DNA of 64,000 bases from a virus (IMGVR_UViG_3300027749_000089:1-64000); one strand, 5' to 3'. Counted from the first letter of the stretch, positions 12,657 to 39,128 are shown. Translations and numbers: made by a program. The notes: generated by a model from the sequence alone, not told the origin.

Positions 12657-12675
12657 ACCCCGTTAAATTAACCCT
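12657..12675 (+). promoter_or_regulatory. 19-bp conserved motif copy 1 (candidate phage-RNAP promoter)
   Basis: ACCCCGTTAAATTAACCCT, exact in five same-orientation copies at gene-module boundaries. Confidence 0.7.
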
Positions 12676-12695
12676 AATTTCAAAAAATAAAAAAG

Positions 12696-12724
12696 TTGAA
12701 GTTAGAAATCCCATCTCGTATTAT
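12696..12724 (+). promoter_or_regulatory. Sigma70-like promoter with A-tract UP element
   Basis: TTGAAG, 17-bp spacer, TATTAT, preceded by an AAAAAATAAAAAA tract, upstream of gene 12798. Confidence 0.55.
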
Positions 12725-12797
12725 TAATGGCAAAAGCGCACCATAATGGAACCGCACGATACATACTTTATATTAATTTATTATTAAGGAATTTATC

Positions 12798-13412
12798 ATG
12801 TCAGTTCAAATCCAACAAGCATTCGTAGTAAACGGTCAAACATTTGCAACTAAAGCAGAAGCATTAAACTTTGTTAGACGTCCATTGATTTTAGCAGCTA
12901 TGTTAACAGCTGTAAGTAATCAAACAGACGTTGCAGAATGGTTAGTTGATAACCAAGACACAGTTGAATCTGCTTTCGAAAGTGGTACTATTCGTCGTGT
13001 GACTAAATCTGATTATAACAAATTGGAAAAAGCACTTGCAGAAATCACTTCAGGTTTCTTATTTGACAATGCAAAATCTGTCTTAGATTCGTTCAGATGG
13101 CCTGCTGTAAAACGTTTAACTGCTGAAGAAAAAGTAGAAGCCGCTAAAACAGAAATCTTACAAGCATCAGGTAATCCTGAACTTGCTGATTATGTTGTTA
13201 GTAACTCTACTGCTATCTTGGAAGCTTATAGCGCTGGTGTTGAAAAACGCGAAGTGTCACCTAAAGCTGCTGCTGGTTTAGCAGAATACCAAGCTAAGAA
13301 ACGTGCTGAAGAAGATGCAGAAGCTGAGTCTAAAGGCCCAGAAGCTGTAGCTGAATTGGCTGCAAAACGTGAAGCTAATCGTTTAAAACGTGAAGCAAAA
13401 GCTGGTAAGTAA
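12798..13412 (+). CDS. Hypothetical protein, probably highly expressed and monocistronic
   Basis: TAAGGA RBS, strongly biased codons (CGT, GCT, AAC, TTC), own promoter elements and terminator, internal helical duplication. Confidence 0.85.
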   Translation: MSVQIQQAFVVNGQTFATKAEALNFVRRPLILAAMLTAVSNQTDVAEWLVDNQDTVESAFESGTIRRVTKSDYNKLEKALAEITSGFLFDNAKSVLDSFRWPAVKRLTAEEKVEAAKTEILQASGNPELADYVVSNSTAILEAYSAGVEKREVSPKAAAGLAEYQAKKRAEEDAEAESKGPEAVAELAAKREANRLKREAKAGK

Positions 13413-13424
13413 TTTTTAACAAAC

Positions 13425-13454
13425 ACCCCTTGACCTTAATGGTTGAGGGGTTTT
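13425..13454 (+). terminator. Rho-independent terminator
   Basis: ACCCCTTGACC-TTAAT-GGTTGAGGGGT stem (two G-U pairs) followed by a T-run. Confidence 0.75.
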
Positions 13455-13477
13455 AATCAAAAACTGGAGATAAAGAA

Positions 13478-14155
13478 ATGATGAGATATTTAACAGCATA
13501 TACAAACAACAGCGTGCGTCTTCAAGTTGAAGATATTGCTCGTAAGGAATTTAAAACATTAGTACAAGTAGCGAATGAACTGATAATCCAGGGCATTGAA
13601 CTAGTCACTATTCAAGACCTTATGGTAACATCTCGTGAAGCAACAATACGTGGTCAAATGCCATTAAAAACTTACATTGAATTAGTTGATAAAATACCTT
13701 TTGTTTCTTATAAACAAAAAGGAAAATGCAACGAGTATCTTGGCTTGGCAATAGAAAAAGCTTTAAAAGCACGCCCTAGAAATGCTATTGTAGATCTTGA
13801 ATATAAAACTTTAAAATGTTCTCTTAACTCTCACATAGACCTGCTAAAGCTTTTATACCCTAATTGTAAAGTCGATGGGATGGAAGTTAAAGTTTCTATT
13901 GGTAGTGATCAAGCATTCTTGCGTTTAAAAGAAATTATCTCTACTCAACCAGGTATTAAACTTAACACTGATCCTACATCTGGTACATTTAGTATTATAA
14001 GTTCAGAAGGTAGGGTTGCTAAGTTTAGAAGAAATGATTATGAATTCTTATTAGAGATTAAAGAGGGGTCTATATTGATTCTAGCTGATAACATCTCTGA
14101 AAATGAGTTAATTGCATTAGGACGCGATGTGTTGGACTTTATTAATCGAGGTTAA
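13478..14155 (+). CDS. Hypothetical protein, possibly with tandem ribbon-helix-helix-like N-terminal segments
   Basis: GGAG RBS. VRLQVEDIARKEFKTLVQVANELIIQGI resembles Arc/MetJ-type helices (weak). Confidence 0.6.
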   Translation: MMRYLTAYTNNSVRLQVEDIARKEFKTLVQVANELIIQGIELVTIQDLMVTSREATIRGQMPLKTYIELVDKIPFVSYKQKGKCNEYLGLAIEKALKARPRNAIVDLEYKTLKCSLNSHIDLLKLLYPNCKVDGMEVKVSIGSDQAFLRLKEIISTQPGIKLNTDPTSGTFSIISSEGRVAKFRRNDYEFLLEIKEGSILILADNISENELIALGRDVLDFINRG

Positions 14156-14157
14156 TT

Positions 14158-14511
14158 ATGAAAGAATTTGAAGTTTTGATTAAAGAAAGGTATTTTATTT
14201 ATAATGCTATTAATGGCACAATTACAAGGCATAATGGCGCTAATGCATGTCTTACACAAAGCGTTGGTAAAAATAGAGGTGTGCGCCATGTAGTTCGTGT
14301 ACCAGGTTCTGCGAAAAAACAAACATCTGCAGCGCGTGTTGCGTGGAGATTGTATTACGGGGAATGGCCTAATGAGCCTATAGCGTTTAAAGACAAAGAC
14401 TCATTTAACATCAGAATCACTAACATGTATACTTTAAACAGCCCATTACCAATCATGGGCAAATTTTCAACACTACTAAATGGTATTTCAAATGAATCAA
14501 AAAGAAGCTAG
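14158..14511 (+). CDS. Degenerate HNH-endonuclease-like protein
   Basis: YNAINGTI...AARVAWRLYYGEWP..IAFKDKDSFNIRITNM matches the phage HNH scaffold but lacks the catalytic His. Confidence 0.65.
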   Translation: MKEFEVLIKERYFIYNAINGTITRHNGANACLTQSVGKNRGVRHVVRVPGSAKKQTSAARVAWRLYYGEWPNEPIAFKDKDSFNIRITNMYTLNSPLPIMGKFSTLLNGISNESKRS

Positions 14512-14953
14512 AAAATTATTCGATTATGACGCGATAACAGGTTGTTTATATTGGAGAGATTCAAAATTTAAGCAAAGCCATAATGCTGTAAGATTCGATC
14601 CTGATAGAAATCGAATCATTCAGGTAAACCATAGGATGTATGTTGCGGCACGACTTGTGTGGACATATCATCATGGCGATGAACTTACACAATTAGATTA
14701 TCTGGGCTATGTTGACAATAATAAACAAAACACTAGAATTGAAAATCTATATCTGAAAGATGGCACAAGCTTTAAAAGTGTTTATAGAAATATTAAACCA
14801 ACAGTATCAGCTGAGAGGGTTGTGTATGATGTCGCTATCAATCACAAAGGTAAAGTTATTTCAAAAAGATGTAGAACACTAACAGAGGCATTAGAGTATA
14901 GAAATGCCCAACGAAGTGAACTTGGTATGAAATTTATTGGGATGGACGTATGA
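14492..14953 (+). CDS. Degenerate HNH protein with AP2-like C-terminal DNA-binding domain
   Basis: LFDYDAITGCLYW, AARLVWTYHHG, LGYVDNNKQNTRIENL (DH replaced by GY), C-terminal YDVAINHKGK...EALEYRN. Confidence 0.65.
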   Translation: MNQKEARKLFDYDAITGCLYWRDSKFKQSHNAVRFDPDRNRIIQVNHRMYVAARLVWTYHHGDELTQLDYLGYVDNNKQNTRIENLYLKDGTSFKSVYRNIKPTVSAERVVYDVAINHKGKVISKRCRTLTEALEYRNAQRSELGMKFIGMDV

Positions 14954-15162
14954 ACATTATAGTAATTAAGAGTACAGAAGATGAGTTAGTTGTACTCAAT
15001 ATTGACCATATAGAGAGTATACGGCTGTATGTTGAAGATACGACTCATCTTTTAAAGGTTAAAGAGGCAGGCTCAATAAGTTTCAAAACCTACACGATAA
15101 GTTACGAAACATGGCATGAGGTAGCACGTATGCTACGATTCCAATGGTCAAAGTTACAGTAA
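14950..15162 (+). CDS. Hypothetical protein
   Basis: 70-aa ORF with ATGA coupling. VVLNIDHIESI resembles VLINLDRISEV in the 15993 ORF. Confidence 0.6.
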   Translation: MNIIVIKSTEDELVVLNIDHIESIRLYVEDTTHLLKVKEAGSISFKTYTISYETWHEVARMLRFQWSKLQ

Positions 15163-15416
15163 TAACGCTCTTATTACTGTCTAATAGTGTTAACGCCTTC
15201 ACGGGCGTTGACATTGATGGTGATAAGTTTGAGTACAAACACAATATGATGTATTCTGAGAAACCTATTGTCATGGCATGGGTTGGAGATATACTTGGTG
15301 GACATCATATTCATACATTTATTGCAAAAGTGGAGAAGCACAATGTTAAAATTAGAAGTGGGCAAAAAGTACAAAAGCATAGACGGACAGATTTGGGAAG
15401 TCGTGTACATCGGTGA
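15144..15416 (+). CDS. Hypothetical protein with an N-terminal signal-peptide-like segment
   Basis: MVKVTVITLLLLSNSVNA-F looks like a Sec signal with an A-x-A-like cleavage site. Confidence 0.5.
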   Translation: MVKVTVITLLLLSNSVNAFTGVDIDGDKFEYKHNMMYSEKPIVMAWVGDILGGHHIHTFIAKVEKHNVKIRSGQKVQKHRRTDLGSRVHR

Positions 15417-15462
15417 TAAAGATATTACGTATCCTGTTATTTTAGTAGAGGAAGTGAAATGA
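15343..15462 (+). CDS. Truncated repeat-domain family member (39 aa)
   Basis: MLKLEVGKKYKSIDG...YPVI; GGAG RBS upstream. Confidence 0.55.
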   Translation: MLKLEVGKKYKSIDGQIWEVVYIGDKDITYPVILVEEVK

Positions 15463-15626
15463 GTTACTGTGCATTATATTTTATTAGCTTAATTGGTACA
15501 CCATATGTTATCTATGATAACGCTGTGTACTCAAATCAACCAATTCCAGGTATGACAACTATTGTTGCCACCCAAGAGATTCTGGATCACTTCATTGAAC
15601 AAAATGAAGCGACCTGTGGAGAATAA
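15459..15626 (+). CDS. Small hypothetical protein (55 aa)
   Basis: Hand-translated; GAGG RBS; ATGA overlap; stop one base before the next ATG. Confidence 0.5.
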   Translation: MSYCALYFISLIGTPYVIYDNAVYSNQPIPGMTTIVATQEILDHFIEQNEATCGE

Positions 15627-15627
15627 G

Positions 15628-15996
15628 ATGCTTGAAGTAGATAAAGAGTATAACAATCTTAATGGTCAACGTATTCGGATATTATTTAAAGAATACGATC
15701 AGTTTGTAGGCGAGAACATGTTTAATGAAGATCTTGAATGGTACAGTAAAGAAGGTCATGGATATGTTGATTTAGTCTTAGAACAACCACTAGATCTTAA
15801 AGTAGGAGATACATGGTTAGATCACTGGAATAACCACGTGTTTATCGCTAGTATTAGCCCTACAGCACAAAGTGGAAGCTATCCTGTTATCGGCATCATG
15901 TACCCTAACACCATCGGGCACAAAGCAGCATGCTATGCTATAGATGGTAAAGCAGCATGCGCTAGTCACTATCCTTTAAAGGAGAAAATAAAATGA
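15628..15996 (+). CDS. Two-copy repeat-domain family protein
   Basis: MLEVDKEYNNLNG...WYSKEG..DLV / LKVGDTW...YPVIG...YAIDG. Confidence 0.7.
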   Translation: MLEVDKEYNNLNGQRIRILFKEYDQFVGENMFNEDLEWYSKEGHGYVDLVLEQPLDLKVGDTWLDHWNNHVFIASISPTAQSGSYPVIGIMYPNTIGHKAACYAIDGKAACASHYPLKEKIK

Positions 15997-16175
15997 ATTT
16001 TGTAAAAGTCACAGGTGTATTGATTAACCTTGATAGGATCTCAGAAGTGTGCATATCAAAGGTTGGAGAAAACTTTGATGTACGGATATCATATGGTGAT
16101 GTTAATGACTGGTCGAGATATTTTTTAAATGAAGAAGAGCTAGCTAAAATTGAAATTGCAATGGGAGTAAGATGA
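15993..16175 (+). CDS. Hypothetical protein
   Basis: AGGAG RBS; 60 aa; coupled to both neighbours. Confidence 0.65.
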   Translation: MNFVKVTGVLINLDRISEVCISKVGENFDVRISYGDVNDWSRYFLNEEELAKIEIAMGVR

Positions 16176-16540
16176 TGATAGAAGTTGGCAAAGAGTATAG
16201 AAATGGGGACAATCATCGTATTTATATAGTATTTGAAAAAGATGATAAATTTGTTGGTGTTGATTTATTCAATGAAGATCTTGATTGGTATTTTGGGAAT
16301 GGTGTATGTACATCTGTTAATGAATCTAGGTTTAATCTAGTGATGCCTATGAAACTAGAAATCGATCACATATATAGTAACACAGACGATGATCGGTATA
16401 TTGTTAAACATTATGATGGTTATGGTAATTATTGGGCCGCTAGACTTGGTCAAGCGTGTAATGGTTCTTGGTTCTATGAGGATGGTAGATATTATAAACA
16501 CGAAGAAACAAGTCATGATTTAATTAAAGAGGTATTCTGA
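16172..16540 (+). CDS. Two-copy repeat-domain family protein, close paralogue of 15628
   Basis: Shares FVG..[ML]FNEDL[ED]WY with 15628; second copy ends WFYEDG...HDLI. Confidence 0.75.
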   Translation: MMIEVGKEYRNGDNHRIYIVFEKDDKFVGVDLFNEDLDWYFGNGVCTSVNESRFNLVMPMKLEIDHIYSNTDDDRYIVKHYDGYGNYWAARLGQACNGSWFYEDGRYYKHEETSHDLIKEVF

Positions 16541-16553
16541 ATTAACCTTTCCC

Positions 16554-16601
16554 CCTCCTACTGCCCTTCGGGGTGGTAGGAGGCCCCTTATTTTTTTTTT
16601 T
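16554..16601 (+). terminator. Strong hairpin plus T-tract closing the accessory region
   Basis: CCTCCTACTGCCC-TTCG-GGGTGGTAGGAGG, then T11 at 16591-16601. Confidence 0.75.
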
Positions 16602-16604
16602 CTT

Positions 16605-16799
16605 ATGAATGATATAATAATAGGCTCCACAATAACAGATACTATCGGTAGAACATTACAGGTAGCATATAAATCACCAACAGTAGTAATAACAGGGCAA
16701 GATACTACAATACAACCATTAGAAACAGAATTTAATTGGTATATGAGTGATGGTTCATATTGTCGATCTTCACGATCAACTTTCTATATTGTCGTATAG
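16605..16799 (+). CDS. Divergent repeat-domain family member (possibly a remnant)
   Basis: IIIGSTITDTIGR...WYMSDG; no clear RBS. Confidence 0.4.
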   Translation: MNDIIIGSTITDTIGRTLQVAYKSPTVVITGQDTTIQPLETEFNWYMSDGSYCRSSRSTFYIVV

Positions 16800-16804
16800 A
16801 CTTA

Positions 16805-16823
16805 ACCCCGTTAAATTAACCCT
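16805..16823 (+). promoter_or_regulatory. 19-bp motif copy 2
   Basis: ACCCCGTTAAATTAACCCT upstream of the packaging genes. Confidence 0.7.
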
Positions 16824-16960
16824 AAAGCCGCTCCCCCTGAATTGTAATCCATTAGTTGTTAATCCTTAGTTATTAATTAATAATAATTAATCTAATAAAT
16901 ATATCCTTTAGGGGATCCCTGACTTTTTCCTAAAGGGCAGAGCGCTGAGACATATAGAAA

Positions 16961-16979
16961 ACCCCGTTAAATTAACCCT
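16961..16979 (+). promoter_or_regulatory. 19-bp motif copy 3
   Basis: ACCCCGTTAAATTAACCCT about 90 bp upstream of the putative terS. Confidence 0.7.
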
Positions 16980-17067
16980 AAGATTAATAATAAATAATTG
17001 TTAATTTTTAAAATAGAGGGCTACGGAGACGTAACTCATTGAATGCAAACTGAAATGTGAGTAAACT

Positions 17068-17505
17068 ATGGACACACAGACAAAGCCACTAAAGAGAGAA
17101 GATGGTGTCAAGATACAACGTCTGAGTAATTTAAGTGCTGGTGGACGTTTGAGTGTAGCTAAGCTTAAAGATTTAGGGTTTGACCCTATTGAAGCATTAG
17201 TACATCAGTATAGATTCTTAGAAGAACAATTACAATACTATAATGATTGGCGTGATAACAAAATAGTACCATTAACATCTACAGGTAAGACTAAATGGTA
17301 TAATGAACAGACACATATGAATCTAATAGATAAGATGACAGCTGTATCAGATAAATTGTTGCGTTATAAATATGGACGTGTTCCAGAGACTAATATTATA
17401 GAAGATAAAATGAGATCCCCATTAGTTATTAACTTAACTAGAGAAGGTGATACACACATCATAGGAGAATACAATGATAGTGACGACAATATTGACTACG
17501 ATTAA
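17068..17505 (+). CDS. Putative terminase small subunit
   Basis: Size and position upstream of terL; helical LGFDPIEAL...LLRYKY core. Confidence 0.5.
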   Translation: MDTQTKPLKREDGVKIQRLSNLSAGGRLSVAKLKDLGFDPIEALVHQYRFLEEQLQYYNDWRDNKIVPLTSTGKTKWYNEQTHMNLIDKMTAVSDKLLRYKYGRVPETNIIEDKMRSPLVINLTREGDTHIIGEYNDSDDNIDYD

Positions 17506-17647
17506 CATATGTGCTTATTTCATGTTAGCATTAACAATGATTGTAGCTATAGTTAAAAAGAAAGTTCCCCAAATGATTATTGATGTATTATTATTTATAT
17601 CATTATGTAATATTTTAACGTTCCTAACAGGACTCTATTATGAGTGA
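17474..17647 (+). CDS. Two-TM membrane micro-protein (57 aa)
   Basis: AGGAG RBS; MIVTTILTTINICAYFMLALTMIVAIV-KKK-VPQMIIDVLLFISLCNILTFLTGLYYE. Confidence 0.6.
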   Translation: MIVTTILTTINICAYFMLALTMIVAIVKKKVPQMIIDVLLFISLCNILTFLTGLYYE

Positions 17648-17795
17648 TTATCAACAATTATTATTTGTATTTAGTCAATTAACGTTAATGATGATTACAA
17701 TTTATTTCATTTGTAAAAACGAACAACTAGCATTTAAGGCCCTACTATGTCAGACAGCAGTAGCGATATTATTATTGATTTGGATTACATCATAA
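17640..17795 (+). CDS. Two-TM membrane micro-protein (51 aa)
   Basis: AGGA RBS; MSDYQQLLFVFSQLTLMMITIYFICKNEQLAFKALLCQTAVAILLLIWITS; overlaps the previous stop. Confidence 0.55.
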   Translation: MSDYQQLLFVFSQLTLMMITIYFICKNEQLAFKALLCQTAVAILLLIWITS

Positions 17796-17923
17796 TGTTT
17801 ACTAATTTAATTATGTTTGCATCGTATGCTTTTTTAGAAACATCAACATGGGTTATTGTTGTATTGGTGTATTTAGGTATATGCGTTTTAAATGACCTCA
17901 TTGACTTAGTATTATATGATTAG
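17795..17923 (+). CDS. Hydrophobic micro-protein (42 aa)
   Basis: TAATG coupling; MFTNLIMFASYAFLETSTWVIVVLVYLGICVLNDLIDLVLYD; overlaps the terL start. Confidence 0.5.
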   Translation: MFTNLIMFASYAFLETSTWVIVVLVYLGICVLNDLIDLVLYD

Positions 17924-19241
17924 CCTTCATCCAGCACAATCTCAAATATATAAAGATTTATTTGTAGATCAAAAATTAAGATATGCTGTAGTATGTTGTG
18001 CTAGGGGTTGGGGTAAATCATATATGGCCGCTGTATGTGCAGTTACAGCTGTATTTGAATTACTCGAACTAGCAGCTAAGGTGCCTAATAAGACAGTGTA
18101 CATCATTGCTCCTACTTATGATCAAGTAAAGGATATTTATTTTCCATTAATTAATTATGATTTAGGAATGGAAGATTATGCTTTAAAATCATCTCGTGAT
18201 CTAGGGCGTTTCTGGTTCGCTAATAATGTTGAATTAAGATTATTATCATATGAATCAGTAGAACGTATGCGTGGCAAGGGTTCTTATTTTGTCGTATGGG
18301 ATGAGATATCATCATGTACCAAAGGTCTTGGTGCTGAAGATGCATGGATGTCTGTAATACAGCCTACTATTGCCACTAGATGGTCTAATAAAAGAGCATT
18401 AAGTTATGGCGCTAGAAGTCCTGGACGTTCATTAGTTATTAGTACACCCAAAGGATATAATTTCTTTCATACACTATCTACATATCATGAATCAGACTCT
18501 GATTGGGGATTTTATCAATATGATTATTTACAATCGCCATTCTTAGATCAACAAGAAATAGAAAAGATTAAAGATAAGATTGACCCAGTAACATGGGCAT
18601 CAGAATACTTAGCACAATTTGCTGAATCAGGCAACAGTGTATTCTACTGTTTTGATCGTAAGAAACATGTTGATGCTACATTAGAAGACCTTATGGAAGG
18701 TGAAGATGTTCATATATGTATTGACTTTAACGTCATGCGTCAGTGTTCTAGTGTCTTCACACTTAGAGGGCATCAAATGCAATTTATTGATGAGTTCCAA
18801 GGGCATCCTGATACAGAATCACTGGCTATTGCTATTAAAGAAAAATATAAAGGCCATAAGATATATGCATATCCAGATCCTTCTGGTCGTGCTAGAAAGA
18901 CTTCAGCTCCAATAGGTCGTACTGACTTTAGTATACTAGAGACATATGGCATTATATGTAGAGCGCACAGGGCTGCACCACCTATTATCGATAGTGTAGC
19001 TGCAGTAAATCGTAAACTATTAACAGCTTCAGGTAAAATAGACCTGTATGTACATCCTAGATGTTCCGGTACTATTTTATCTCTTGAAAGAACAAAATGG
19101 ACAGACCGCAACTTAGATATCGCGACTATTGATAAGTCCGAAAATATAGAGCATTTTTCTGATGGTATTAGATATGCCACAGAATATCTCTATCCAATAC
19201 AAACGGGCGGGAAACGGGTTTCTCGTGGTTTCAACTTTTAA
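17916..19241 (+). CDS. terL: Terminase large subunit
   Basis: Walker A ARGWGKS, Walker B VVWDE, coupling motif ISTPKG, RNase H-like CIDFN and HFSDGIRY. Confidence 0.93.
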   Translation: MISLHPAQSQIYKDLFVDQKLRYAVVCCARGWGKSYMAAVCAVTAVFELLELAAKVPNKTVYIIAPTYDQVKDIYFPLINYDLGMEDYALKSSRDLGRFWFANNVELRLLSYESVERMRGKGSYFVVWDEISSCTKGLGAEDAWMSVIQPTIATRWSNKRALSYGARSPGRSLVISTPKGYNFFHTLSTYHESDSDWGFYQYDYLQSPFLDQQEIEKIKDKIDPVTWASEYLAQFAESGNSVFYCFDRKKHVDATLEDLMEGEDVHICIDFNVMRQCSSVFTLRGHQMQFIDEFQGHPDTESLAIAIKEKYKGHKIYAYPDPSGRARKTSAPIGRTDFSILETYGIICRAHRAAPPIIDSVAAVNRKLLTASGKIDLYVHPRCSGTILSLERTKWTDRNLDIATIDKSENIEHFSDGIRYATEYLYPIQTGGKRVSRGFNF

Positions 19242-19251
19242 GGATAATAAA

Positions 19252-19620
19252 ATGGAAGCACAAGATTGGGTAAATATCGTATTGAGTGCTGGAGGCACGA
19301 TTGCCACAGCCGCATTGGGACTACTCATGTCTAAGTTTAATAAGTTAGAAGCAGATAATGATTCTGTTGCAAAGGCTATTAGTGATGTTAAAATCCTTAT
19401 TGCTAACGATTATGTGAAGAAAGTCGAACTTAATCAACAGCTACAAGATATCTCTAGAAAGTTAGATAAGTTAGAAGATTTAGAAACTCAAATGGCTACG
19501 CAATATGCTCGTAAAGAAGATCTTAAAACTCTAGGTGAAAGCCTGGGAAAGAAATTAGATCAAATACTCGATAAACTAGAAAGAAAAGCTGATAAGACAG
19601 ATTGGAGGGGCAATGGCTAG
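19252..19620 (+). CDS. N-terminal TM plus coiled-coil protein (holin/antiholin-like candidate)
   Basis: TAAGGA RBS; hydrophobic WVNIVLSAGGTIATAALGLLM followed by heptad repeats with a repeated YVKK/YARK motif. Confidence 0.55.
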   Translation: MEAQDWVNIVLSAGGTIATAALGLLMSKFNKLEADNDSVAKAISDVKILIANDYVKKVELNQQLQDISRKLDKLEDLETQMATQYARKEDLKTLGESLGKKLDQILDKLERKADKTDWRGNG

Positions 19621-20194
19621 AAGCAAAATTAATGCACCAACAACTGATTTAGTTACAGATACAGGTAGTGTATTATGGTCATTTATTAAGGGTGAGCAAT
19701 TAGAATTTCCTATTACACTTAAATTTTTAGATGATGCTACTGCTGGTTATACATATGAAGCTGTAGTAATTGAAGCAGATAATGCTAATAATAAAGGATT
19801 ACCTACAGCAGCATTAACTAGTGGTGTACAAACAACAATCGCTACTAGAATACCTACTAATCGCGGTACATGGGGTGCAGCACAAGCTTATAACAGAGAA
19901 GATGTAGTGTTATACAATGGTGTATATTATCGATTATATGATGGCTTGATTCGTGTTAGCGCATTAACGCCTGATTTAGATGCTACGTGGATTACTACTC
20001 AATTAAATAAAATATATATTAGATTTCCTAGTACATTAGGCTATACATGGGTTACACAGCCGATAGTTGCTAAGTCGTCTTATGGATTCTTTGAGTTAAG
20101 AGTCACTGAGAACAGTGCTACATTTCCTCGTACATGGAAACCTGTTCGTGGCTTAGTTGAAATTCAATTCAGTCCAACGGATCTAGTGCCATGA
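19613..20194 (+). CDS. Virion structural protein with a small carbohydrate-binding-like insert
   Basis: WGAAQAYNREDVVLYNGVYY resembles CBM5/12-type modules; beta-rich adaptor-like remainder. Confidence 0.5.
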   Translation: MARSKINAPTTDLVTDTGSVLWSFIKGEQLEFPITLKFLDDATAGYTYEAVVIEADNANNKGLPTAALTSGVQTTIATRIPTNRGTWGAAQAYNREDVVLYNGVYYRLYDGLIRVSALTPDLDATWITTQLNKIYIRFPSTLGYTWVTQPIVAKSSYGFFELRVTENSATFPRTWKPVRGLVEIQFSPTDLVP

Positions 20195-21093: not shown

Positions 21094-21095
21094 AA

Positions 21096-30554: not shown

Positions 30555-30568
30555 AGAGAAATCAAAAT

Positions 30569-31161: not shown

Positions 31162-31173
31162 TTGGAGACAATT

Positions 31174-31305: not shown

Positions 31306-31460
31306 AGAATACTTTAGAAAAAGCGTTTAAAGATGCAGGAAAAGCTATTAATCACACTGTACACGAAGCAGCGGATGTTGCAGAAAAAGTTGTGATTAAT
31401 CCTGATGTACAAGAAGTAGCAAAAGAAGTTGCTATTGGCGTTATTGTTGCAGCGGTATAA
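31302..31460 (+). CDS. 52-aa peptide with a hydrophobic C-terminus
   Basis: ATGA coupling; ends KEVAIGVIVAAV directly before the endolysin. Confidence 0.6.
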   Translation: MKNTLEKAFKDAGKAINHTVHEAADVAEKVVINPDVQEVAKEVAIGVIVAAV

Positions 31461-31462
31461 TT

Positions 31463-31912: not shown

Positions 31913-31913
31913 A

Positions 31914-32117
31914 ATGGCAGACCAGCAAGAAACACCAGTCGTAGTGGCACCTAAAGTTATGGCTAAGGTACAACCAAAAGAATTTGTAAATAAAATTACA
32001 TCTAACTGGAATATTACATCTACTGAAGTTGAAGAAGAAATCACAGCTTTGAATAGCGTGACAAATGAATATTTTGAAGGCACTATTGTTGAATTTAATA
32101 GACTATTAGAGGCTTAG
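31914..32117 (+). CDS. Hypothetical protein
   Basis: 67 aa with AGGA RBS, directly before the portal. Confidence 0.65.
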   Translation: MADQQETPVVVAPKVMAKVQPKEFVNKITSNWNITSTEVEEEITALNSVTNEYFEGTIVEFNRLLEA

Positions 32118-32118
32118 T

Positions 32119-33702
32119 ATGACATACGGCCCTACTAAGACAGTTGCGGATCCTTGTCAAGCGTATGAGTATCTTAAACCTTCGTGGAATAAGGCACGTG
32201 CTGTATGCAATGGGGAACGTACTGTAAAAGAGCTGGATCAGTATATTGATCTAATTAGATTTAGCAATTTGCTGATACCCTTCTCTACAACAATGAGCCA
32301 AGCTCAATATGACTTTTATAAGTCAGAAGCTGAATTACCAGGCATTACTGCACAATTTGCTAAGATGCTTGTTGGGGGTTTATTAAGAAAAGCTCCTATA
32401 TTAACATTACCGGATGAAGTTCCTGAAGAAGCTAAGGATTGGCTTATCAATAATATCGGACGTGATGACTCTACACTAGTAGCATTTCTTGATGAATTAT
32501 TGTGGGAAGAGATCAATACATCCCGTGCATGGGTATTTGTAGACCACCCATCCGTTAATAATGTTGAAAACTTAGATAAAGAAACTAGAGATATGATTAA
32601 ACCATATCCTATTTTGCAAAAAGCTGAAACAATTGTTAACTGGGCAACAGCTGTAGATATATTTGGTAAAACAGTTTTAAAATATGTAATTGTTAAAGGT
32701 TACTCAGACGATTATACTATTAATGAATTCCATGCTATGAGAGTCCCTACGGTCTGGGTACATGAATTAAACGAAGAAGGTAATTACCAAATTCGTAAGT
32801 TCATGGGCACAACTAAAGACAATGGCGATCAAACTCTTAAAATAGGAGGTATTGGTGAGAAAGCTCAGCAATTACTACCTTCAGGCCATTTCGAGTTAAT
32901 AGAAACATTTGACAATATACTTAATAGCGGGGAACCACTAAGGCATATTCCTGCATGGCCTGTTAATGGTAGTATAGAACCTATTATGCCATTATTAATG
33001 CCTATCGTAGATAAAGAGATTAGCCTATATAATAAAATTAGTAGACGAAATCATTTACTATACGGTGCAGCTACTTATACACCTGTTATTATGTCAGATA
33101 TGCCTGATGAACAATTTGATGAAATTGTAGACGCTGGATTAGGGTCTTGGATAAGATTACGCCAAGATGATAAAGCAGATGTCTTAAAAACACCCACAGA
33201 CGCATTACAAGACATGCAAAAAGCTATTGAAGCATCTATCGATGAAATGGCTAAACTTGGCATTAGAATGCTTACAACTGAAAATGAACAATCAGGTATT
33301 GCATTAGAAATTCGTAATGCTGCTCAAACGGCACAATTAAGTGTGTTGAGTACAAAAATCTCCAGTACATTAAAGCAAGTAATATGCTTAATGGTTAATT
33401 GGAGATATGGATTAAAAATTAATGCATGTGATATTGTGTTTAATTTATCCGCAGATTTTGATCCAGTGCCTTTAGGTGCTGAGTGGTTGAATCTTGTTAC
33501 TCAATGGTATCAATCAGGGTTATTACCTAGAACTGTGTGGCTGCAGATGCTAAAGGCAAATGATATTCTTAATTCTGAATATGATGATGAAGCCGCATTA
33601 CAAGAAGTAAACGCAGATCCTCAGATCATACCTGCAGCAACTAAATATAATGATCAGTATGCAATGCAAACATCATCACAACAAGGAGTTAATAATGGCT
33701 AA
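32119..33702 (+). CDS. Portal protein
   Basis: 527 aa; position upstream of MuF, scaffold and capsid genes; sequence pattern resembles DUF4055-type siphovirus portals. Confidence 0.75.
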   Translation: MTYGPTKTVADPCQAYEYLKPSWNKARAVCNGERTVKELDQYIDLIRFSNLLIPFSTTMSQAQYDFYKSEAELPGITAQFAKMLVGGLLRKAPILTLPDEVPEEAKDWLINNIGRDDSTLVAFLDELLWEEINTSRAWVFVDHPSVNNVENLDKETRDMIKPYPILQKAETIVNWATAVDIFGKTVLKYVIVKGYSDDYTINEFHAMRVPTVWVHELNEEGNYQIRKFMGTTKDNGDQTLKIGGIGEKAQQLLPSGHFELIETFDNILNSGEPLRHIPAWPVNGSIEPIMPLLMPIVDKEISLYNKISRRNHLLYGAATYTPVIMSDMPDEQFDEIVDAGLGSWIRLRQDDKADVLKTPTDALQDMQKAIEASIDEMAKLGIRMLTTENEQSGIALEIRNAAQTAQLSVLSTKISSTLKQVICLMVNWRYGLKINACDIVFNLSADFDPVPLGAEWLNLVTQWYQSGLLPRTVWLQMLKANDILNSEYDDEAALQEVNADPQIIPAATKYNDQYAMQTSSQQGVNNG

Positions 33703-34003
33703 GAGTGTAAAAAGAAGTATGGCGTTAAAAGGCAATAATAATGCGGCTAAACATGGATTAGGTGCAGGATTTGGTGCAACAATGGGTGCAGGCTTAGCAA
33801 TGCCTTTTGCAAAACCTGCTGCAATGTTTATGGCTAAAAGTGCTGGTCCAATGGTAATTGCACATGCTGCAGGATTAGGTGCATCTAAAGGATTATTGTT
33901 TGGCGGTACTGGGGCGTTAGTGGGGGCAGCTATTGGTGGCGGCTTAAGTTATTTAGCGTATAGTAAATTGCCAATTCAAAATCATGCAAGACACACTAAT
34001 TAA
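33695..34003 (+). CDS. Glycine-zipper membrane-active protein
   Basis: AAGGAG RBS; basic N-terminus (KGNNNAAK), then GxxxG repeats GLGAGFGATMGAGL and GGTGALVGAAIGGGL. Confidence 0.7.
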   Translation: MAKSVKRSMALKGNNNAAKHGLGAGFGATMGAGLAMPFAKPAAMFMAKSAGPMVIAHAAGLGASKGLLFGGTGALVGAAIGGGLSYLAYSKLPIQNHARHTN

Positions 34004-34016
34004 TTAAAGGCTACAC

Positions 34017-37000
34017 ATGATTATTAATAGTAATACACAAATTTATGACAAAACGCTAGATCGCGCAGCGATGATCCGTCTATATGAGAGAAGAGTCTCT
34101 GGTAAAGTTGATTTAGTAATTGATGGTCATGTTGTTAGACTAGATAAATTAATTAAAGATGCAGAATTATCAGGACGAGGTTTCGAAAAATTTAGAGAAG
34201 CTATTGACCAAGAATTAAGAAAGACATATAAATCAATTAATAATTCTGTTCAAAAAGATCTATCATCTCTTGTATCTGATCAACTCTCATATGCTTATCA
34301 AAAAGTAGAAGTGGCAATGGGTAAAATATGGCGTACTGAAAGACCTAAGAATAGAATCTCTGAAGAAATTGTACTTAAAAACCCATTAAGTGAAAACGGT
34401 ACAATGGAGCAGGGATGGTCAGGTATTGCCAAGAATGAAAAAATTAGATTAGAAGCAGTTATACGCAAAGGTATAGCTGACGGAAAAAGCGTAGATGAAA
34501 TAGCTCTACAAATACGTTCAGGAAACGTACATAATATAACTCGCATGCAGTCGAAAGGTCTGGTAATAACAGCCATTACAGCTGTATCCTCTCAGGCTGA
34601 TCATGCTATTTATAAAGCAAATGAAAAAGCGTTACAAGGATGGCAATATGTTGCTGTCCTTGACGCACGAACAACTCCGCTATGTGCTCATAGAGATGGT
34701 GAAATTTATCCGATAAGCGATACAATACATCTTCCACCGGCACACTGGCATTGCAGATCTACTACAGTTCCTGTATTTAAATCATGGAGCGATATAGCAG
34801 ATCTGGAAAGTGTAGCACAAGTAAGACGTAGGAATATTGAGAACTTAACTGATGCTCAAAAAGCTTTTTATGACGGTAACACACCTCTTAGAGAGTCATA
34901 CAACGATTGGCTAAAGCGGCAACCACAAGATGTACAATTAAGGCATCTTGGTGATTATAAAAAAGTTAACATGTTTCAATCAGGACAACTTACTGTTGAT
35001 CAATTTACTAACCCAGAAGGTAACACTATTGGAATTAAAGAATTGAGACGTATGACTGATCCTACATATACACTTCCTAATGATACACAGAAATTTGCTA
35101 ATGCAAAAGCTAAATTAGATGCGATGCAATTACCTATTATGACACCAGATGATTTAATAGGAGATCCTAAATTAATTCAAACATTAAAAGATTATTATTT
35201 ATTACAGGCAGGTGAATTAGATGGTACCTTATCTCTTACCAATTATCGAGGCGCACTTATCCATACAAAGAAAGCTGCCAAGACAAGAGTGCTTAACAGT
35301 CTTCCAACGGAGGACCAACTCATCTTTAACCCCGTTACCGGTAGGTACGAAGATACAAGATTATATCAACCTAATCCATCCGTACTCAATAATAACTTAA
35401 GACTTGCAAAACAAAGTGATGTTTTGAAACCAAAAGATAAAGAGTTTATTAATTCATTTAATACTGCGCTTAGTGAAAAGATGAGTGTTAATGAGCGTGC
35501 CGTTGTGGTAGATAACCTTCGTATTCTATTTACCAGATTTAGAAATAATGGTGAACAGTGGAATAACTTTAAAGCTGTGGTACAGGGTCAAATTAAATTT
35601 GATGTAATGAATGTTTCTGATGCTATTGAAACTCAGATACGTAGTGATATCAACGTATTGAAGAAACTCAAACAAGATAATTATATTGATCCAGTATTAG
35701 GTCCAACTCAATTACAAGACTTGCATGATAATTTCATTGATAATATTCGTGCTAAGAATAACTGGGAAGATACTATATCTCCTAAGATAGCTAGAGAGTT
35801 ACGTAATACATTTGATTACAAGATACCCTTAGTATTAAAAAGAATGCCTAATGGTAAAGAGCGTTTAACTGAATCTGCATTACAACAATTTTATCTAAAG
35901 TTTGCGCACAGATTAAGCATGGCAGATATGCCTGATAGAGATCAATTTGCTATTGCATTAGGAAGAGATTTATACAATCTTGCTAATATGAACGGCACTA
36001 GACGTAAATGGTACGAAACAGGTATGAAGCTTCTTGAAGCTAAAAATGTTAGTAACTTCTTTGAAGTTGAAACATATGGTGTTCAAAAGCGAAGAATGAA
36101 AAGTAGACTTAGTGGTTCCTTGTTTGGCCCTTATTATGACACTCTGTCATATAATATAAGAGTTGTAGACCCTCGAATACAAGAATATTCACAGCTCACA
36201 CGGAAAGTGGACGTTGGCCTACGTGTTGGCGTAACAACAGAAAAGAACAAACTGGTTTTTCGCGAGGGATATAAAACTTATTTTATTGACAGAGGTCTCC
36301 TAGGTTTAGAAGATACAAGAATACCTATTACGTCAACAAATAGTTTTTCAGATTTTCCTGAAGAACTTGTTGATAAAAATATGGCAGATGCGTTAAATTG
36401 GGCATCTAAGTCTAAGTATAAAATTGATAATGACTTTTACGACTTTACACAAAAATTATTATACTTTGAAGATGATCGAGGTAACGCTAAAAAGTATAAT
36501 GATCTAAATGAATACAAACACTATATTTCATCTCGTGGTGATGCATATGAACGATTTAAATCTATGGATTGGCTTAGAAATAATGATTACGCTTTCAGTA
36601 ATCATGCTTTTGTCGATCATCGGGCTAGGATCTATGATCGTGGCCTTATTAGTCCGCAATCGGGAGAATCATTTAGACCTTTCTTAAATACTGAAGTAGA
36701 AAAAGTTCTTGGCGAAGATGGATATAGAAACTTCAGAGATCAGATAGGTGCCTTTATGGGTGGTCTAAATGATGTATTTGAAGGTAGATATAATTCATTG
36801 TCATTTACTGGACGCCAAAAGATTGCTGATAAATTGTGGCCAGATATGGTAGACCTTGGTAATAAAATGTTAAGAGCCAAACCTGCAGATTTACGTGCTA
36901 TTCTGGAATCAGATACGGTGCAATTAATTGAAGGTGAGGAACTTGGTAAGTTCATGAGATTTGCCATGGAAGCTGCTAAGATAGATAATCATCTTAAAGC

Positions 37001-38654
37001 CGGTGGCTCTATGAATGCATACAAAACAGCCTTAGCCTTGGAACAAGATGCATCGTCTTCAGGTGCTCAGATTATTGCATTAACTACAAAGAATAAGCAA
37101 TTAGCTTCATTATCTAATGTTATACCAACAAATCAGAAACGCAGACTATATGATGAAATTGCTGCTGCAACATTTAATGATCCTCGGTTTAAGGTGCTTA
37201 ACGAAAGATTATGCCTCAATGAAAAAGATTTACGTAAAGCTGCAAAAGCTCAAAATATGGTTACGTTTTATGGTGCTGGTGAGAGAACGGGAATTTTAAA
37301 TGTAGAAGGAAAGTTAGCTAAAGTACTTGGGAAGGACTCTTCTACACTAGTAGTAAAAGCTAGTGATCGTGATAAAGTATTAAATGAAATTTCAGCTCGT
37401 GCGGCTAGATATGAAAAGTTTGATCCAGAGACAACTGCAGAGCTTAAACAGCTTAGAGAAAACGTTAAAGATATATTTAACAAAGGCTTAGATCCTGGTG
37501 ATGACATTATGGAACAGTTATATTTCCTGGATCCTGCTACTAAAGACTTAGTAGAAAAAATGACACACACCTATGATATGGTGGTTACACCTAAAGACTT
37601 CCAAGCTATTGCTAAATTAATGTCTGAACATTTAGGTGAGCAGGTTCCTATTCTTAAAGATTTTACTAAATTCTTTGGTAGACTAGCTGAAGATTATTTA
37701 ACTAATGCTAAGCCTTCACAAGCTGCATTAGATTGGAGATCTATAGGCGCTACTAGTATATTAGGTGCCCGTAAAAAAGGTTATGTATTACCTGATAGAG
37801 TTAGTGAAATATTAGGATTGAAGCCTGGAGAAGCTTTGTCTGAAAAGTTTTTAAAGAGATTTGATGGTTGGAAACCTGACGGAACCTTGGCTGATCTTAT
37901 TTATGGTGTAAAAGGCCCAAAAGATCGTAGAACTGGATTTAAAGTATTTAAAGTAGAGCCTATAGAAAAATTAAATATCTCTAAAGGTTTTGAAATATTT
38001 TATGCTAATAAGCTGCCCAAGTCTTGGACTAATGTCCCATGGGTTAATTTTGATGGAAAAGTTATTGAGCAAAACTTTACCCAGTCATTTGAAGAAAGAT
38101 TAGTCTATAAAGACAAAGATGGTAATTGGGTTAATAATTTGGTTCAGGTGCAGCAGAAAACAGAAGCCACTTGGTGGGAACAGGTAGTTAATGCAGACGG
38201 TAAAATAAATGACATTGCAGACGCAACTAAAGCACGAACAGCATATGCAGTTAACGGCAATCACTCAAATGATGCCACGTTGGTTAAGAATTTCCATATC
38301 TGGGGACGAGACAATAAGATTGCCACAAGCACCATTCACGATGCGTTTTTCGCCAATGCAGCCGATATGCTGGAGGCCCGGAAGGGTATAAGAAAACTAT
38401 ATGCTAACGTACTAGATAAGAACCCTGTCAAGGTTACTTTAGATGAAATGTTAGCTAGAGGTTTTCCAAAAGAATTATATGATAAATATTTAGAAGAAGC
38501 TATTGACAAAGGATTAATTCCAGTTGCTGGTAAATCAGTTGTCGGTGGTAAAACATTAACAGAAGCTGACATCTTAACAAAGAAAGATGTAATGAGCGAT
38601 ATCCCCGATCCTACTAAATTTGAGGATGATTGGGGTTTTTACGGCATAGGCTGA
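34017..38654 (+). CDS. MuF (SPP1 gp7-like minor head protein) fused to a T7-family single-subunit RNA polymerase
   Basis: N-terminal WQYVAVLDARTTPLCAHRDG...PPAHWHCRST (MuF). C-terminal DHRARIY (DxxGR-like), QDASSSGAQ (motif A), RKAAKAQNMVTFYG (motif B), NGNHSND, TIHDAF (motif C). Confidence 0.9.
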   Translation: MIINSNTQIYDKTLDRAAMIRLYERRVSGKVDLVIDGHVVRLDKLIKDAELSGRGFEKFREAIDQELRKTYKSINNSVQKDLSSLVSDQLSYAYQKVEVAMGKIWRTERPKNRISEEIVLKNPLSENGTMEQGWSGIAKNEKIRLEAVIRKGIADGKSVDEIALQIRSGNVHNITRMQSKGLVITAITAVSSQADHAIYKANEKALQGWQYVAVLDARTTPLCAHRDGEIYPISDTIHLPPAHWHCRSTTVPVFKSWSDIADLESVAQVRRRNIENLTDAQKAFYDGNTPLRESYNDWLKRQPQDVQLRHLGDYKKVNMFQSGQLTVDQFTNPEGNTIGIKELRRMTDPTYTLPNDTQKFANAKAKLDAMQLPIMTPDDLIGDPKLIQTLKDYYLLQAGELDGTLSLTNYRGALIHTKKAAKTRVLNSLPTEDQLIFNPVTGRYEDTRLYQPNPSVLNNNLRLAKQSDVLKPKDKEFINSFNTALSEKMSVNERAVVVDNLRILFTRFRNNGEQWNNFKAVVQGQIKFDVMNVSDAIETQIRSDINVLKKLKQDNYIDPVLGPTQLQDLHDNFIDNIRAKNNWEDTISPKIARELRNTFDYKIPLVLKRMPNGKERLTESALQQFYLKFAHRLSMADMPDRDQFAIALGRDLYNLANMNGTRRKWYETGMKLLEAKNVSNFFEVETYGVQKRRMKSRLSGSLFGPYYDTLSYNIRVVDPRIQEYSQLTRKVDVGLRVGVTTEKNKLVFREGYKTYFIDRGLLGLEDTRIPITSTNSFSDFPEELVDKNMADALNWASKSKYKIDNDFYDFTQKLLYFEDDRGNAKKYNDLNEYKHYISSRGDAYERFKSMDWLRNNDYAFSNHAFVDHRARIYDRGLISPQSGESFRPFLNTEVEKVLGEDGYRNFRDQIGAFMGGLNDVFEGRYNSLSFTGRQKIADKLWPDMVDLGNKMLRAKPADLRAILESDTVQLIEGEELGKFMRFAMEAAKIDNHLKAGGSMNAYKTALALEQDASSSGAQIIALTTKNKQLASLSNVIPTNQKRRLYDEIAAATFNDPRFKVLNERLCLNEKDLRKAAKAQNMVTFYGAGERTGILNVEGKLAKVLGKDSSTLVVKASDRDKVLNEISARAARYEKFDPETTAELKQLRENVKDIFNKGLDPGDDIMEQLYFLDPATKDLVEKMTHTYDMVVTPKDFQAIAKLMSEHLGEQVPILKDFTKFFGRLAEDYLTNAKPSQAALDWRSIGATSILGARKKGYVLPDRVSEILGLKPGEALSEKFLKRFDGWKPDGTLADLIYGVKGPKDRRTGFKVFKVEPIEKLNISKGFEIFYANKLPKSWTNVPWVNFDGKVIEQNFTQSFEERLVYKDKDGNWVNNLVQVQQKTEATWWEQVVNADGKINDIADATKARTAYAVNGNHSNDATLVKNFHIWGRDNKIATSTIHDAFFANAADMLEARKGIRKLYANVLDKNPVKVTLDEMLARGFPKELYDKYLEEAIDKGLIPVAGKSVVGGKTLTEADILTKKDVMSDIPDPTKFEDDWGFYGIG

Positions 38655-38657
38655 AAT

Positions 38658-38792
38658 ATGAACGCAGAAATTAAAAGATGTACATGTCAACATCCTAATC
38701 AGGATAAACTCCATGGCAATGGAATGAGAGTGATGAATCCAGATCAGAAGAAAGGGTTCACATGCACTGTATGTGGAGCAAAACACAAATGA
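38658..38792 (+). CDS. 44-aa Zn-ribbon-like micro-protein
   Basis: MNAEIKRCTCQHPNQDKLHGNGMRVMNPDQKKGFTCTVCGAKHK (CxC...CxxC); starts 3 nt after the RNAP stop. Confidence 0.7.
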   Translation: MNAEIKRCTCQHPNQDKLHGNGMRVMNPDQKKGFTCTVCGAKHK

Positions 38793-39010
38793 GATTTAGT
38801 CACGCATTAGATTTAATAATTGCAAACCACAAACTAGCACGTACAGGTTGGAACGGTAAAAACATGTATGTCAGTATTGTTAGAAATTTTGGTTCAGTTG
38901 AGCCATTTTTCATATTAACACAACCTACTAAGACGAACACATGGGTTCCTTCAATGTCTGATTTATTATCGGATGATTGGGTTATCTTTCCAGAGACCCC
39001 GTTAAATTAA
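38789..39010 (+). CDS. DUF2829-family protein (Tad2-like candidate anti-defence signal sponge)
   Basis: MRFSHAL...ARTGWNGKNMYV...WVPSMSDLLSDDW signature. Confidence 0.8.
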   Translation: MRFSHALDLIIANHKLARTGWNGKNMYVSIVRNFGSVEPFFILTQPTKTNTWVPSMSDLLSDDWVIFPETPLN

Positions 39011-39014
39011 CCCT
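38996..39014 (+). promoter_or_regulatory. 19-bp motif copy 4
   Basis: ACCCCGTTAAATTAACCCT overlapping the DUF2829 stop codon. Confidence 0.7.
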
Positions 39015-39109
39015 TAAGCGGTCCCCCCTTTAATGAGTCTATTAGTTAATTAGTCCTTTATTTATTCTTTAATAAAATAATAATAAATAAATATATTAAT
39101 GATTAATAG

Positions 39110-39128
39110 ACCCCGTTAAATTAACCCT
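39110..39128 (+). promoter_or_regulatory. 19-bp motif copy 5
   Basis: ACCCCGTTAAATTAACCCT about 80 bp upstream of the scaffold/capsid operon. Confidence 0.7.

Follow-up and report, generated by a model that had tools for sequence, protein, structure and literature searches.

A recurrent 19-nt motif in a long-tailed lake phage as a probable promoter of a T7-type phage RNA polymerase

Which enzyme, if any, reads a 19-bp sequence that returns unchanged along the genome of a lake phage? The question arises from a 64,000-nt stretch of viral DNA (IMGVR_UViG_3300027749_000089:1-64000, the whole of which is here termed the window), where five exact copies of the sequence ACCCCGTTAAATTAACCCT lie between positions 12,657 and 39,128. 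The original prediction, made from the window alone, took them for near-invariant promoters of new specificity, read by an RNA polymerase (RNAP) that is fused to a MuF head domain. The placement, orientation, conservation and synteny of the motif support the first part of this proposal, and it is very likely that the 19-mer is a phage-polymerase promoter. The proposed reader is not supported. The 19-mers are probably middle/late promoters (class 1) for a second, free polymerase of 739 amino acids (aa), and not for the MuF-fused enzyme.

The 19-nt motif, its placement and its conservation

A virus record of 74,798 bp (G000) begins with the 64 kb of the window. The ends of this record overlap by approximately 150 bp, and it is therefore a complete, circularly assembled genome. 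The 19-mer is on the + strand at all five predicted positions (Table 1), and there are no further matches in the window at up to three mismatches. Dinucleotide-preserving shuffles give an expected count of 0.02, and none of 100 shuffles reaches five copies. A scan of the whole genome adds one exact copy and one with a single mismatch, both beyond the window. Thus there are seven copies, six of them exact. All seven are on the + strand and none on the - strand, and all long open reading frames (ORFs) of the phage are on the + strand.

A deliberately permissive ORF map assigns approximately 96% of the genome to coding sequence. Five of the seven 19-mers are wholly inside the non-coding remainder of about 4%, and the other two reach only into the final 15 nt of a real gene or into ORF calls that are doubtful. 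Annotation with Pfam and PHROGs shows that the copies head five co-directional blocks (early, replication, 12798, packaging and head/tail), which agrees with the predicted placement ahead of the 12798 gene, the terminase genes and the scaffold and major capsid genes. They are 6-47 nt downstream of the preceding stop codon and 20-125 nt upstream of the next start, a spacing typical of phage-polymerase promoters. No other k-mer family of comparable length recurs, with the exception of the second motif class described below. The core contains the palindrome GTTAA-A-TTAAC, as predicted. The last ten bases, AATTAACCCT, had been equated with positions -17 to -8 of the T3 promoter, and this is true for four of the 14 annotated 23-bp T3 promoters (phi4.3, phi6.5, phi10 and phi13 in NC_003298), of which they are the first ten bases.

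A megablast search with 12 kb against GenBank phages gave no match, and relatives were found solely at the protein level. The MuF-polymerase as query identified 78 loci (55-97% identical), and a scan of IMG/VR for the 16-nt core identified at least 117 stretches. Dozens of uncultured relatives have the core CCGTTnnnTTAACCC in matching positions and on the matching strand. The core CCCGTTAAATTAACCC is on the gene strand at syntenic sites in the relatives G001 (seven copies), G003 (eight), G004 (five) and G002 (four). The shared slots are the gap between the MuF-polymerase and scaffold genes, the sites before the terminase genes and before the 12798 homologue, and the site between the free polymerase and the replication genes. 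These slots are preserved in genome fragments even where marker proteins are only 40-70% identical. The core is present in more than 100 IMG/VR stretches with polymerases down to 53-61% identical, and it is unchanged in G002, which has 46% GC and polymerases only 57-59% identical to those of the window phage. EBPR siphovirus 1 (a partial GenBank record of 55% GC) has CCGTTnnnTTAACCC at three sites: CCGTTGAATTAACCC upstream of gp9 and, as in the window phage, CCGTTACATTAACCC before the terminase block and CCGTTATTTTAACCC after the MuF-polymerase gene. Among the relatives compared, the intergenic flanks diverge and the motif stays. A simple k-mer scan of Pelagibacter phage Kolga, which has one T7-type polymerase and a plain MuF protein, revealed no clear repeated promoter.

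The family consensus is CCGTT-nnn-TTAACCC. The centre and the left half are variable and the right half is nearly invariant; the exceptions in the right half are TTAATGAT before the G002 terminase genes and TTAAAGG in one further locus (L053). In G002, at approximately 48430-48700 upstream of the small terminase gene, the variants AACCCGTTAAATTAATGAT and AACCGTTAGCTTAATGATGGG replace the TTAACCC half, and these sites may be weaker or differently regulated promoters.

The motif keeps to one strand in five genomes (7/7, 7/7, 8/8, 5/5 and 4/4). The site has asymmetric flanks (ACCCC versus CCCT) and two unequally conserved halves, and no compensatory changes on the other arm of the palindrome were found among the motif variants. 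The palindrome can form a hairpin with a stem of 4 bp only (-0.1 and -0.5 kcal/mol on the two strands), which is no better than in shuffled sequences. Because it is strictly oriented, asymmetric and without covariation, the motif looks like a directional double-stranded site that is read by a monomer, and not like an operator or an N4-type hairpin.

Two T7-type polymerases and a second motif class

The gene of the MuF-fused polymerase belongs to the block that begins with copies 2 and 3. The protein has a weak match to PF00940, and its motifs DASSSG, RxxxKxxxMVTFYGAG and IHDAFF are invariant in 8-17 relatives. Sequence and profile searches against PDB sequences found no polymerase for the module, which is placed by fold comparison only. 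A model of the last 856 aa (predicted local distance difference test, pLDDT, 63.6) superposes on 1s76_D over 528 residues with Z 26.8 and a root-mean-square deviation (rmsd) of 3.9. The module aligns over its full length with the T7 and mitochondrial polymerases (Z 26-27); the virion RNAP (vRNAP) of phage N4 gives Z 12-20.

The free polymerase, encoded just past the window, matches PF00940 at 9.5e-65 and T7 RNAP at 4e-44. It is approximately 25-27% identical to T7-group polymerases, and its C-terminus, ..SEYAFA, resembles the ..FAFA of T7. The model (pLDDT 72) aligns with residues 77-883 of the T7 promoter complex 1cez_A (Z 24.1, rmsd 3.0, 518 residues, 25% identity); it aligns from T7 residue 77 onward only, i.e., the N-terminal region is shorter than that of T7. 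The free and MuF-fused polymerases have approximately 23-25% identity, over short stretches only.

A second motif, TATCTTATATGA, is found three times in the genome: the early block opens with two copies (66063 and 66601), and the window has one (12026). It extends to a 26-nt block, TGCGGAAAnnnnGGTATCTTATATGA (class 2), which is followed by a small hairpin, AGTAC..GTACC. Class 2 is kept in G001-G004 and in more than 30 further loci, typically as two to four copies upstream of the free polymerase gene, and no -35 box is found at the class 2 sites of more than 30 related loci. It is probably an early promoter class. In G002, class 2 copies at 6144 and 8490 precede the free polymerase gene (9565). 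There is no 19-mer upstream of that gene, and the first one is past it, at 13147.

The roseophages DSS3_VP1 and DSS3_PM1 (Naomviridae), found by protein-level searches, have both polymerases and the same gene order as the window phage. The identities are 27.7% for the MuF-polymerase (gp108) and 34.8% for the free polymerase (gp080). The class 1 motif of DSS3_VP1 is AATAGGGTGCGTTAAAGAGGGGGA, with nine copies on the gene strand, partly at syntenic slots. Copies are located before the terminase block, before the tail genes and before gp072, and a tandem pair, 89 nt apart, is located before the portal/MuF-polymerase block. The homologues of gp072 and gp008 in the window phage are directly downstream of a 19-mer; the homologue of gp008 is gene 17068. 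AATAGGGTGCGTTAAAGAGGGGGA and the 19-mer have only CGTTAAA in common. No class 1 copies are present before the early block of DSS3_VP1. Two copies of GAAAACTAAGGCATCTATAATGA, a sequence clearly homologous to class 2, are present there, upstream of the free polymerase gene and nowhere else. Papers on the Naomviridae (PMC8323127, PMC12697855) do not discuss the polymerases and promoters.

The free polymerase is the likelier reader of the 19-mers because both G002 and DSS3_VP1 have no motif but class 2 upstream of its gene, and have class 1 only downstream of it and in later blocks, that of the MuF-polymerase among them. If the MuF-fused enzyme read class 1 in these two phages, it would transcribe all but the early block and leave the free polymerase the promoters of its own operon, which would make no regulatory sense. 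If instead the injected enzyme reads class 2 and the free one, once made, reads class 1, the result is a closed, host-independent relay. The existence of the free polymerase, the position of class 2 before its gene and the gene order in G002 and DSS3_VP1 make the MuF-fused enzyme the less likely reader of the 19-mers and the more likely reader of class 2. A similar division of labor is found in N4, phiKZ and P23-45, where a virion enzyme reads a few early promoters and a non-virion enzyme the later ones, as is generally known (see also PMC5512222 and PMC10770324).

Comparison of the family with DSS3_VP1 shows that class 1 has changed and class 2 hardly at all, and that the specificity loop of the free polymerase has changed too, a co-variation that is suggestive. 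The loop window (aa 601-630, aligned with T7 739-770) is 7% identical to that of DSS3_VP1 with a 12-aa gap, versus 35% for the whole protein, and it is almost invariant in the family that shares the 19-mer. The co-variation of promoter and polymerase draws on one out-group, DSS3_VP1, and on genomes in which both polymerases always co-occur.

In the proposed mechanism, the MuF-fused polymerase would be carried in the capsid and enter the cell with the DNA. It would then read class 2 before the early genes, by which the free polymerase would be made. The free polymerase would read the 19-mers and express all remaining genes, including that of the MuF-polymerase for the next round. The 19-mers would head each transcription unit: replication, 12798, packaging together with portal and MuF-polymerase, and head/tail. 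In the subclade of the window phage one 19-mer would head the early block as well. The promoter role, the pairing of motif class with enzyme, the packaging of the MuF-fused enzyme and the start site are all points that we infer. A wider reading is offered tentatively, as a possibility somewhat short of even: a large, mostly uncultured family of long-tailed phages from lakes, wastewater and the sea, the Naomviridae included, may rely for its entire programme on a pair of T7-type polymerases that it encodes itself, with the injected MuF-fused one reading the 26-nt early promoter and switching on the free one that reads the 19-mers, and with some 19-mers (type A, see below) doubling as T7-style transcription-primed origins.

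In some relatives the polymerase genes have insertions of approximately 700-750 nt. The free polymerase gene is interrupted at aa 513/515 in G003 and G004, and the MuF-polymerase gene near aa 993 and 1106/1108 in G001 and G003; both genes are uninterrupted in the window phage. These insertions are probably mobile introns or inteins, since the one in EBPR siphovirus 1 (gp47-gp48-gp49) is annotated as an HNH endonuclease gene.

The gene order and the presence of both polymerases link the lake phage family distantly to the marine Naomviridae, which have deoxyuridine-containing DNA (dU-DNA). A tblastn search with the deoxycytidylate deaminase of DSS3_VP1 found no homologue in the window phage, and dU-DNA is therefore not indicated for it.

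Transcripts, competing explanations and flanking elements

The RNA data are from four public lake and freshwater metatranscriptome runs of three studies, in which the phage or close relatives appear as assembled contigs; no sites at which many molecules begin or end are listed for these runs, and contig regions without cover were not counted as evidence. Word depth rises across copy 1 from 0-6 (positions 11668-12334) to 157-228 (12335-13001), and across copy 3 from 12-19 to 66-72. The contig depth of the 12798 gene is 188-530, versus 3-7 for the next gene (runs X20, X22 and X19). In runs X19 and X20, both from one sample, contigs of approximately 85-96x start at position 16966, and the upstream depth is approximately 12-23x. 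Contaminating DNA is not the source, because neighbouring genes differ so strongly in depth. The depth steps give weak support to promoters. No other phage RNA comes near that of the 12798 gene in abundance in these lake metatranscriptome contigs.

Three registers can be drawn for the start site. By alignment to T3, TTAACCCT is at -15 to -8 and the start would be approximately 8 nt downstream of the motif. By alignment to DSS3_VP1, the shared CGTTAAA is at -7 to -1 and the start would be within the motif. Purines that follow the motif (CCCAGG, CCCTGGAAGGG and CCCTAA in relatives; AAGGG in G002) would place the start 2-3 nt after it. Since these registers disagree, the ten-base identity to the T3 promoter is real but may be a coincidence.

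Several points weigh against the free polymerase as reader and against the relay. Assembled contigs cannot show transcript starts. One of them starts inside copy 3 (16966) and others contain the motif, i.e., the motif is partly transcribed at some sites; motif-bearing contigs would be expected from read-through at tandem sites and are compatible too with a start inside the motif. The region of the MuF-fused enzyme that corresponds to the specificity loop is also below average in identity (13-23% versus 28%), which leaves the loop argument only suggestive. The scan of relatives for co-occurrence, as proposed in the original prediction, finds the motif kept together with the MuF-fused polymerase, but both polymerases are present in every near-complete relative (four) and their co-occurrence cannot separate the two readers; EBPR siphovirus 1 is without the free polymerase only because the record is partial. 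The packaging of the MuF-fused enzyme is suggested by its domain alone. The cassette of C run, AT-rich tract and TTAGT repeats that follows the type A copies is left unexplained by a promoter role. Finally, copy 6 is located before the early block in the subclade of the window phage, which is compatible with the injected enzyme reading the 19-mers.

The position of copy 6 is also an argument for the explanation closest to the original prediction, that the 19-mers are promoters of the virion-delivered MuF-fused polymerase, which would transcribe all blocks directly after injection. This protein has a complete polymerase module of T7 size with intact catalytic motifs, and it is kept in all motif-bearing genomes that could be checked. 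The explanation is nevertheless unlikely. In G002 and DSS3_VP1 no class 1 motif precedes the early block, the few enzyme copies in a virion would need to drive the bulk of the late genes, and it is class 2 that is kept with respect to DSS3_VP1, while class 1 and the specificity loop of the free polymerase have changed. An improbable alternative is that a phage transcription factor binds the motif, which would then be either an activator box for the host polymerase, as the T4 MotA boxes are, or a repressor operator. It would account for the short palindromic core and for the location of the sites within control regions, but not for an orientation that is strict in every genome, nor for a right half, TTAACCC, that is almost invariant while the left half and the centre vary without matching changes. 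Moreover, no -10-like element recurs at a constant distance, the GC-richer relatives have G-rich sequence downstream, and a phage with two polymerases of its own would have little need of such a factor.

The motif could also act on RNA or on transcript ends, as a termination or pause signal, a processing site or a conserved 5' leader. Several copies are 6-47 nt past a stop codon, the motif is found inside RNA contigs with the one start at 16966, and the type A copies have another promoter-like site within 80-160 nt. Against this, the hairpin is unstable, the motif has no U-run, classical hairpin-plus-T terminators are present nearby as separate elements (e.g., 16554-16600, 65286-65307 and 68119-68133), there is no Rfam match, and RNA depth across the motifs goes up, not down; a role at the RNA level is very improbable. 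A role at the level of DNA, for example as strand-specific nick sites of the T5 kind, as packaging signals or as replication origins, is in our view hardly probable at all. A repeated strand-specific sequence would fit, and the type A copies precede AT-rich tracts in a manner that resembles the promoter-plus-origin pairing of T3/T7, e.g., T3 phi1.05 and the AT-rich primary origin annotated just downstream of it in the T3 record. Transcription better explains why the motifs are placed at operon heads and why they are syntenic with gene starts in distant relatives, and an origin would require the motif to be a promoter first.

Other candidates were rejected. An N4-type hairpin promoter, with its stable stem of 5-7 bp and 3-nt loop, disagrees with the unstable 4-bp stem and the lack of compensatory change, and an N4-type early-only promoter with the six of seven copies that head replication, packaging and structural blocks. 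A dimeric repressor operator disagrees with the asymmetric flanks, the unequal halves and the strict orientation in five genomes. For a host sigma-70 promoter, the motif has no associated -35/-10 pair at 16-18 bp. Relative to shuffles, two of the three stretches scanned show no excess of sigma-70-like sites (36 versus 48.5; 9 versus 13.6). In the third, 11000-18000, there are 43 versus 30.4 (standard deviation 5.6), none marking a block start.

Table 1. Coordinates of the motif copies, blocks and genes in the window and in the whole genome (G000)
Feature	Position	Strand	Details
19-mer copy 1	12657..12675	+	type B; 47 nt after previous ORF, 123 nt before 12798 gene
19-mer copy 2	16805..16823	+	type A; 6 nt past stop of ORF 16605-16799
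Spacer of tandem copies 2/3	16824..16960	+	C-run, AT-rich tract, TTAGTTGTTAATCC element, small hairpin with T-run 16908-16930
19-mer copy 3	16961..16979	+	type B; 89 nt before small-terminase-like gene 17068-17505
19-mer copy 4	38996..39014	+	type A; overlaps last 15 nt of Tad2-like gene 38762-39010
19-mer copy 5	39110..39128	+	type B; ~80 nt before scaffold ATG 39208
19-mer copy 6	65974	+	type A; one mismatch (AACCCG...); beyond window
19-mer copy 7	73218	+	type B; exact; beyond window
Class 2 copy	12013..12039	+	..GCGCAATAAGGGATATCTTATATGA; upstream of ORF 12036; only window copy
Class 2 copies	G000 66050-66076, 66588-66614 (L101:2050-2076, 2588-2614)	+	beyond window
Block	after 65974	+	small early genes, 739-aa RNA polymerase
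Block	after 73218	+	SSB (single-stranded DNA-binding protein)-like gene, DNA polymerase, primase-helicase, ribonucleotide reductase, ligase
Block	after 12657	+	12798 gene, small genes
Block	after 16805/16961	+	small and large terminase, tail-fibre-like genes, portal, MuF-polymerase, Tad2-like gene
Block	after 38996/39110	+	scaffold, major head protein, tail genes, 3,370-aa tape measure
12798 gene	12798..13412	+	204 aa; first gene past copy 1
Large terminase	17916..19241	+	PF03237; in block of copies 2 and 3
MuF-fused RNA polymerase	34017..38654	+	1545 aa; Phage_Mu_F domain (PF04233) aa 146-250; T7-type module in ~last 856 aa
Major head protein	39868..41106	+	phrog_247; in block of copies 4 and 5
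Free RNA polymerase	G000 68275-70494 (L101:4275-6494), just past window	+	739 aa; early block

The copies differ in their 3' flanks. The type B copies have AA and an A-rich tract directly 3'. After the type A copies comes a GC-rich stretch that includes five or six consecutive C (up to nine in relatives), then an AT-rich tract and an element like TTAGTnnTTAGTCC; a further promoter-like site follows within 80-160 nt. This type A cassette (16824-16960, 39015-39109 and G000 65993-66050) includes TTAGT direct repeats (TTAGTTGTTAATCC). Cassettes are more alike within one genome than between genomes, and EBPR siphovirus 1 has G-runs (GGAGGGGGTTGGGGG) at the corresponding position. An origin or a leader is possible.

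GC-rich structured islands are located directly 5' of copy 1 (12489-12650) and copy 6 (G000 65780-65970), and a 7-bp hairpin, GGGTCTC..GAGACCC, overlaps the start of copy 7 (73197-73222). These elements may be terminators for a phage polymerase. Copy 1 has syntenic counterparts in G001, G003, G004 and many IMG/VR loci, and the 12798 gene that follows it has no Pfam or PHROG match. The ORF that copy 4 overlaps encodes 82 aa with a Thoeris anti-defence Tad2-like domain (PF11195, 1.6e-17). It is missing in more distant relatives, where the motif is directly after the MuF-polymerase gene. The leader of the scaffold gene (39129-39207) is kept family-wide as GATTGTAT..GAGTTGTACTCAAAGGAAA or GATTGTATC...GAGTTGTACTCAAAGGAAA, with a small hairpin beside the ribosome-binding site, and it is retained in two loci (L035 and L055) where the 19-mer is missing. 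The stretches 44334-54446 and 55701-63905 hold the very large tape measure protein of 3,370 aa, which includes an SLT lytic transglycosylase domain, and after it an ORF of 2,734 aa. Whole-genome scans found no Rfam families or tRNAs.

Comparison with known systems

T7-like phages have promoters of this kind as a textbook feature. The sequence specificity, the host-independent wiring of two polymerases in a siphovirus and the MuF carrier appear new; the literature searched yielded no description of the 19-mer specificity, of a two-polymerase relay in a siphovirus or of a MuF carrier. If the assignment is correct, a compact T7-type polymerase of 739 aa would have in the 19-mer a promoter of new specificity, which is kept throughout a very abundant family of freshwater phages, and the two would be a candidate orthogonal expression pair. 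A likely misassignment of the motif to the capsid-fused enzyme would be corrected as well. The 19-mer and class 2 together give a directly testable wiring diagram of a host-independent relay in a siphovirus, and an experiment is feasible because a cultured relative with the same wiring, DSS3_VP1, grows on Ruegeria pomeroyi. Should the wider reading also hold, both polymerase-promoter pairs would be new and orthogonal, and the N4 strategy would have been invented a second time, independently and in compact form.

The closest likeness of the motif itself is to the T3/T7 class II/III promoters (23 bp, -17 to +6). Like these, the 19-mer is a near-invariant sequence of approximately 20 bp, co-oriented with the genes, present in multiple and sometimes tandem copies, and set close behind one gene, 20-125 nt ahead of the following one. 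Its AT-rich part gives way to a specificity-like CCC part, and it shares TTAACCCT with T3. It differs outside the ten shared bases, and in the subclade of the window phage it is without the conserved CACTAAAGGGAGA or a conserved G start. The window phage is a 75-kb long-tailed virus and not a T7-like podovirus, and it seems to be a second phage polymerase, not the host enzyme, on which its early genes depend.

Coliphage N4 uses the virion RNAP gp50 at early hairpin promoters and RNAPII (gp15/16) for middle genes. Here too there are two polymerases, one of them apparently capsid-borne, and two promoter classes, with few early and many later promoters. The carrier is a MuF head domain, not the 3,500-aa gp50, and the fused module is nearer to the T7 and mitochondrial enzymes than to N4 vRNAP, as judged by the Z scores given above. 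Furthermore, the 19-mer forms no stable hairpin, the late genes carry a phage promoter too, and no host-polymerase stage is evident.

The dU-DNA siphoviruses DSS3_VP1 and DSS3_PM1 (Naomviridae; PMC8323127) have the same gene order, both polymerases and two motif classes that are wired alike, with AATAGGGTGCGTTAAAGAGGGGGA as the class 1 motif instead of the 19-mer. In Thermus phage P23-45 (PMC10770324), a virion RNAP fused to the tape measure starts the infection and switches on a non-virion RNAP. A virion-fused polymerase that switches on a second phage polymerase is what is proposed here. The enzymes of P23-45 are related to multisubunit cellular polymerases, with the tape measure as fusion partner, whereas both enzymes of the window phage are of the T7 type and the carrier is MuF.

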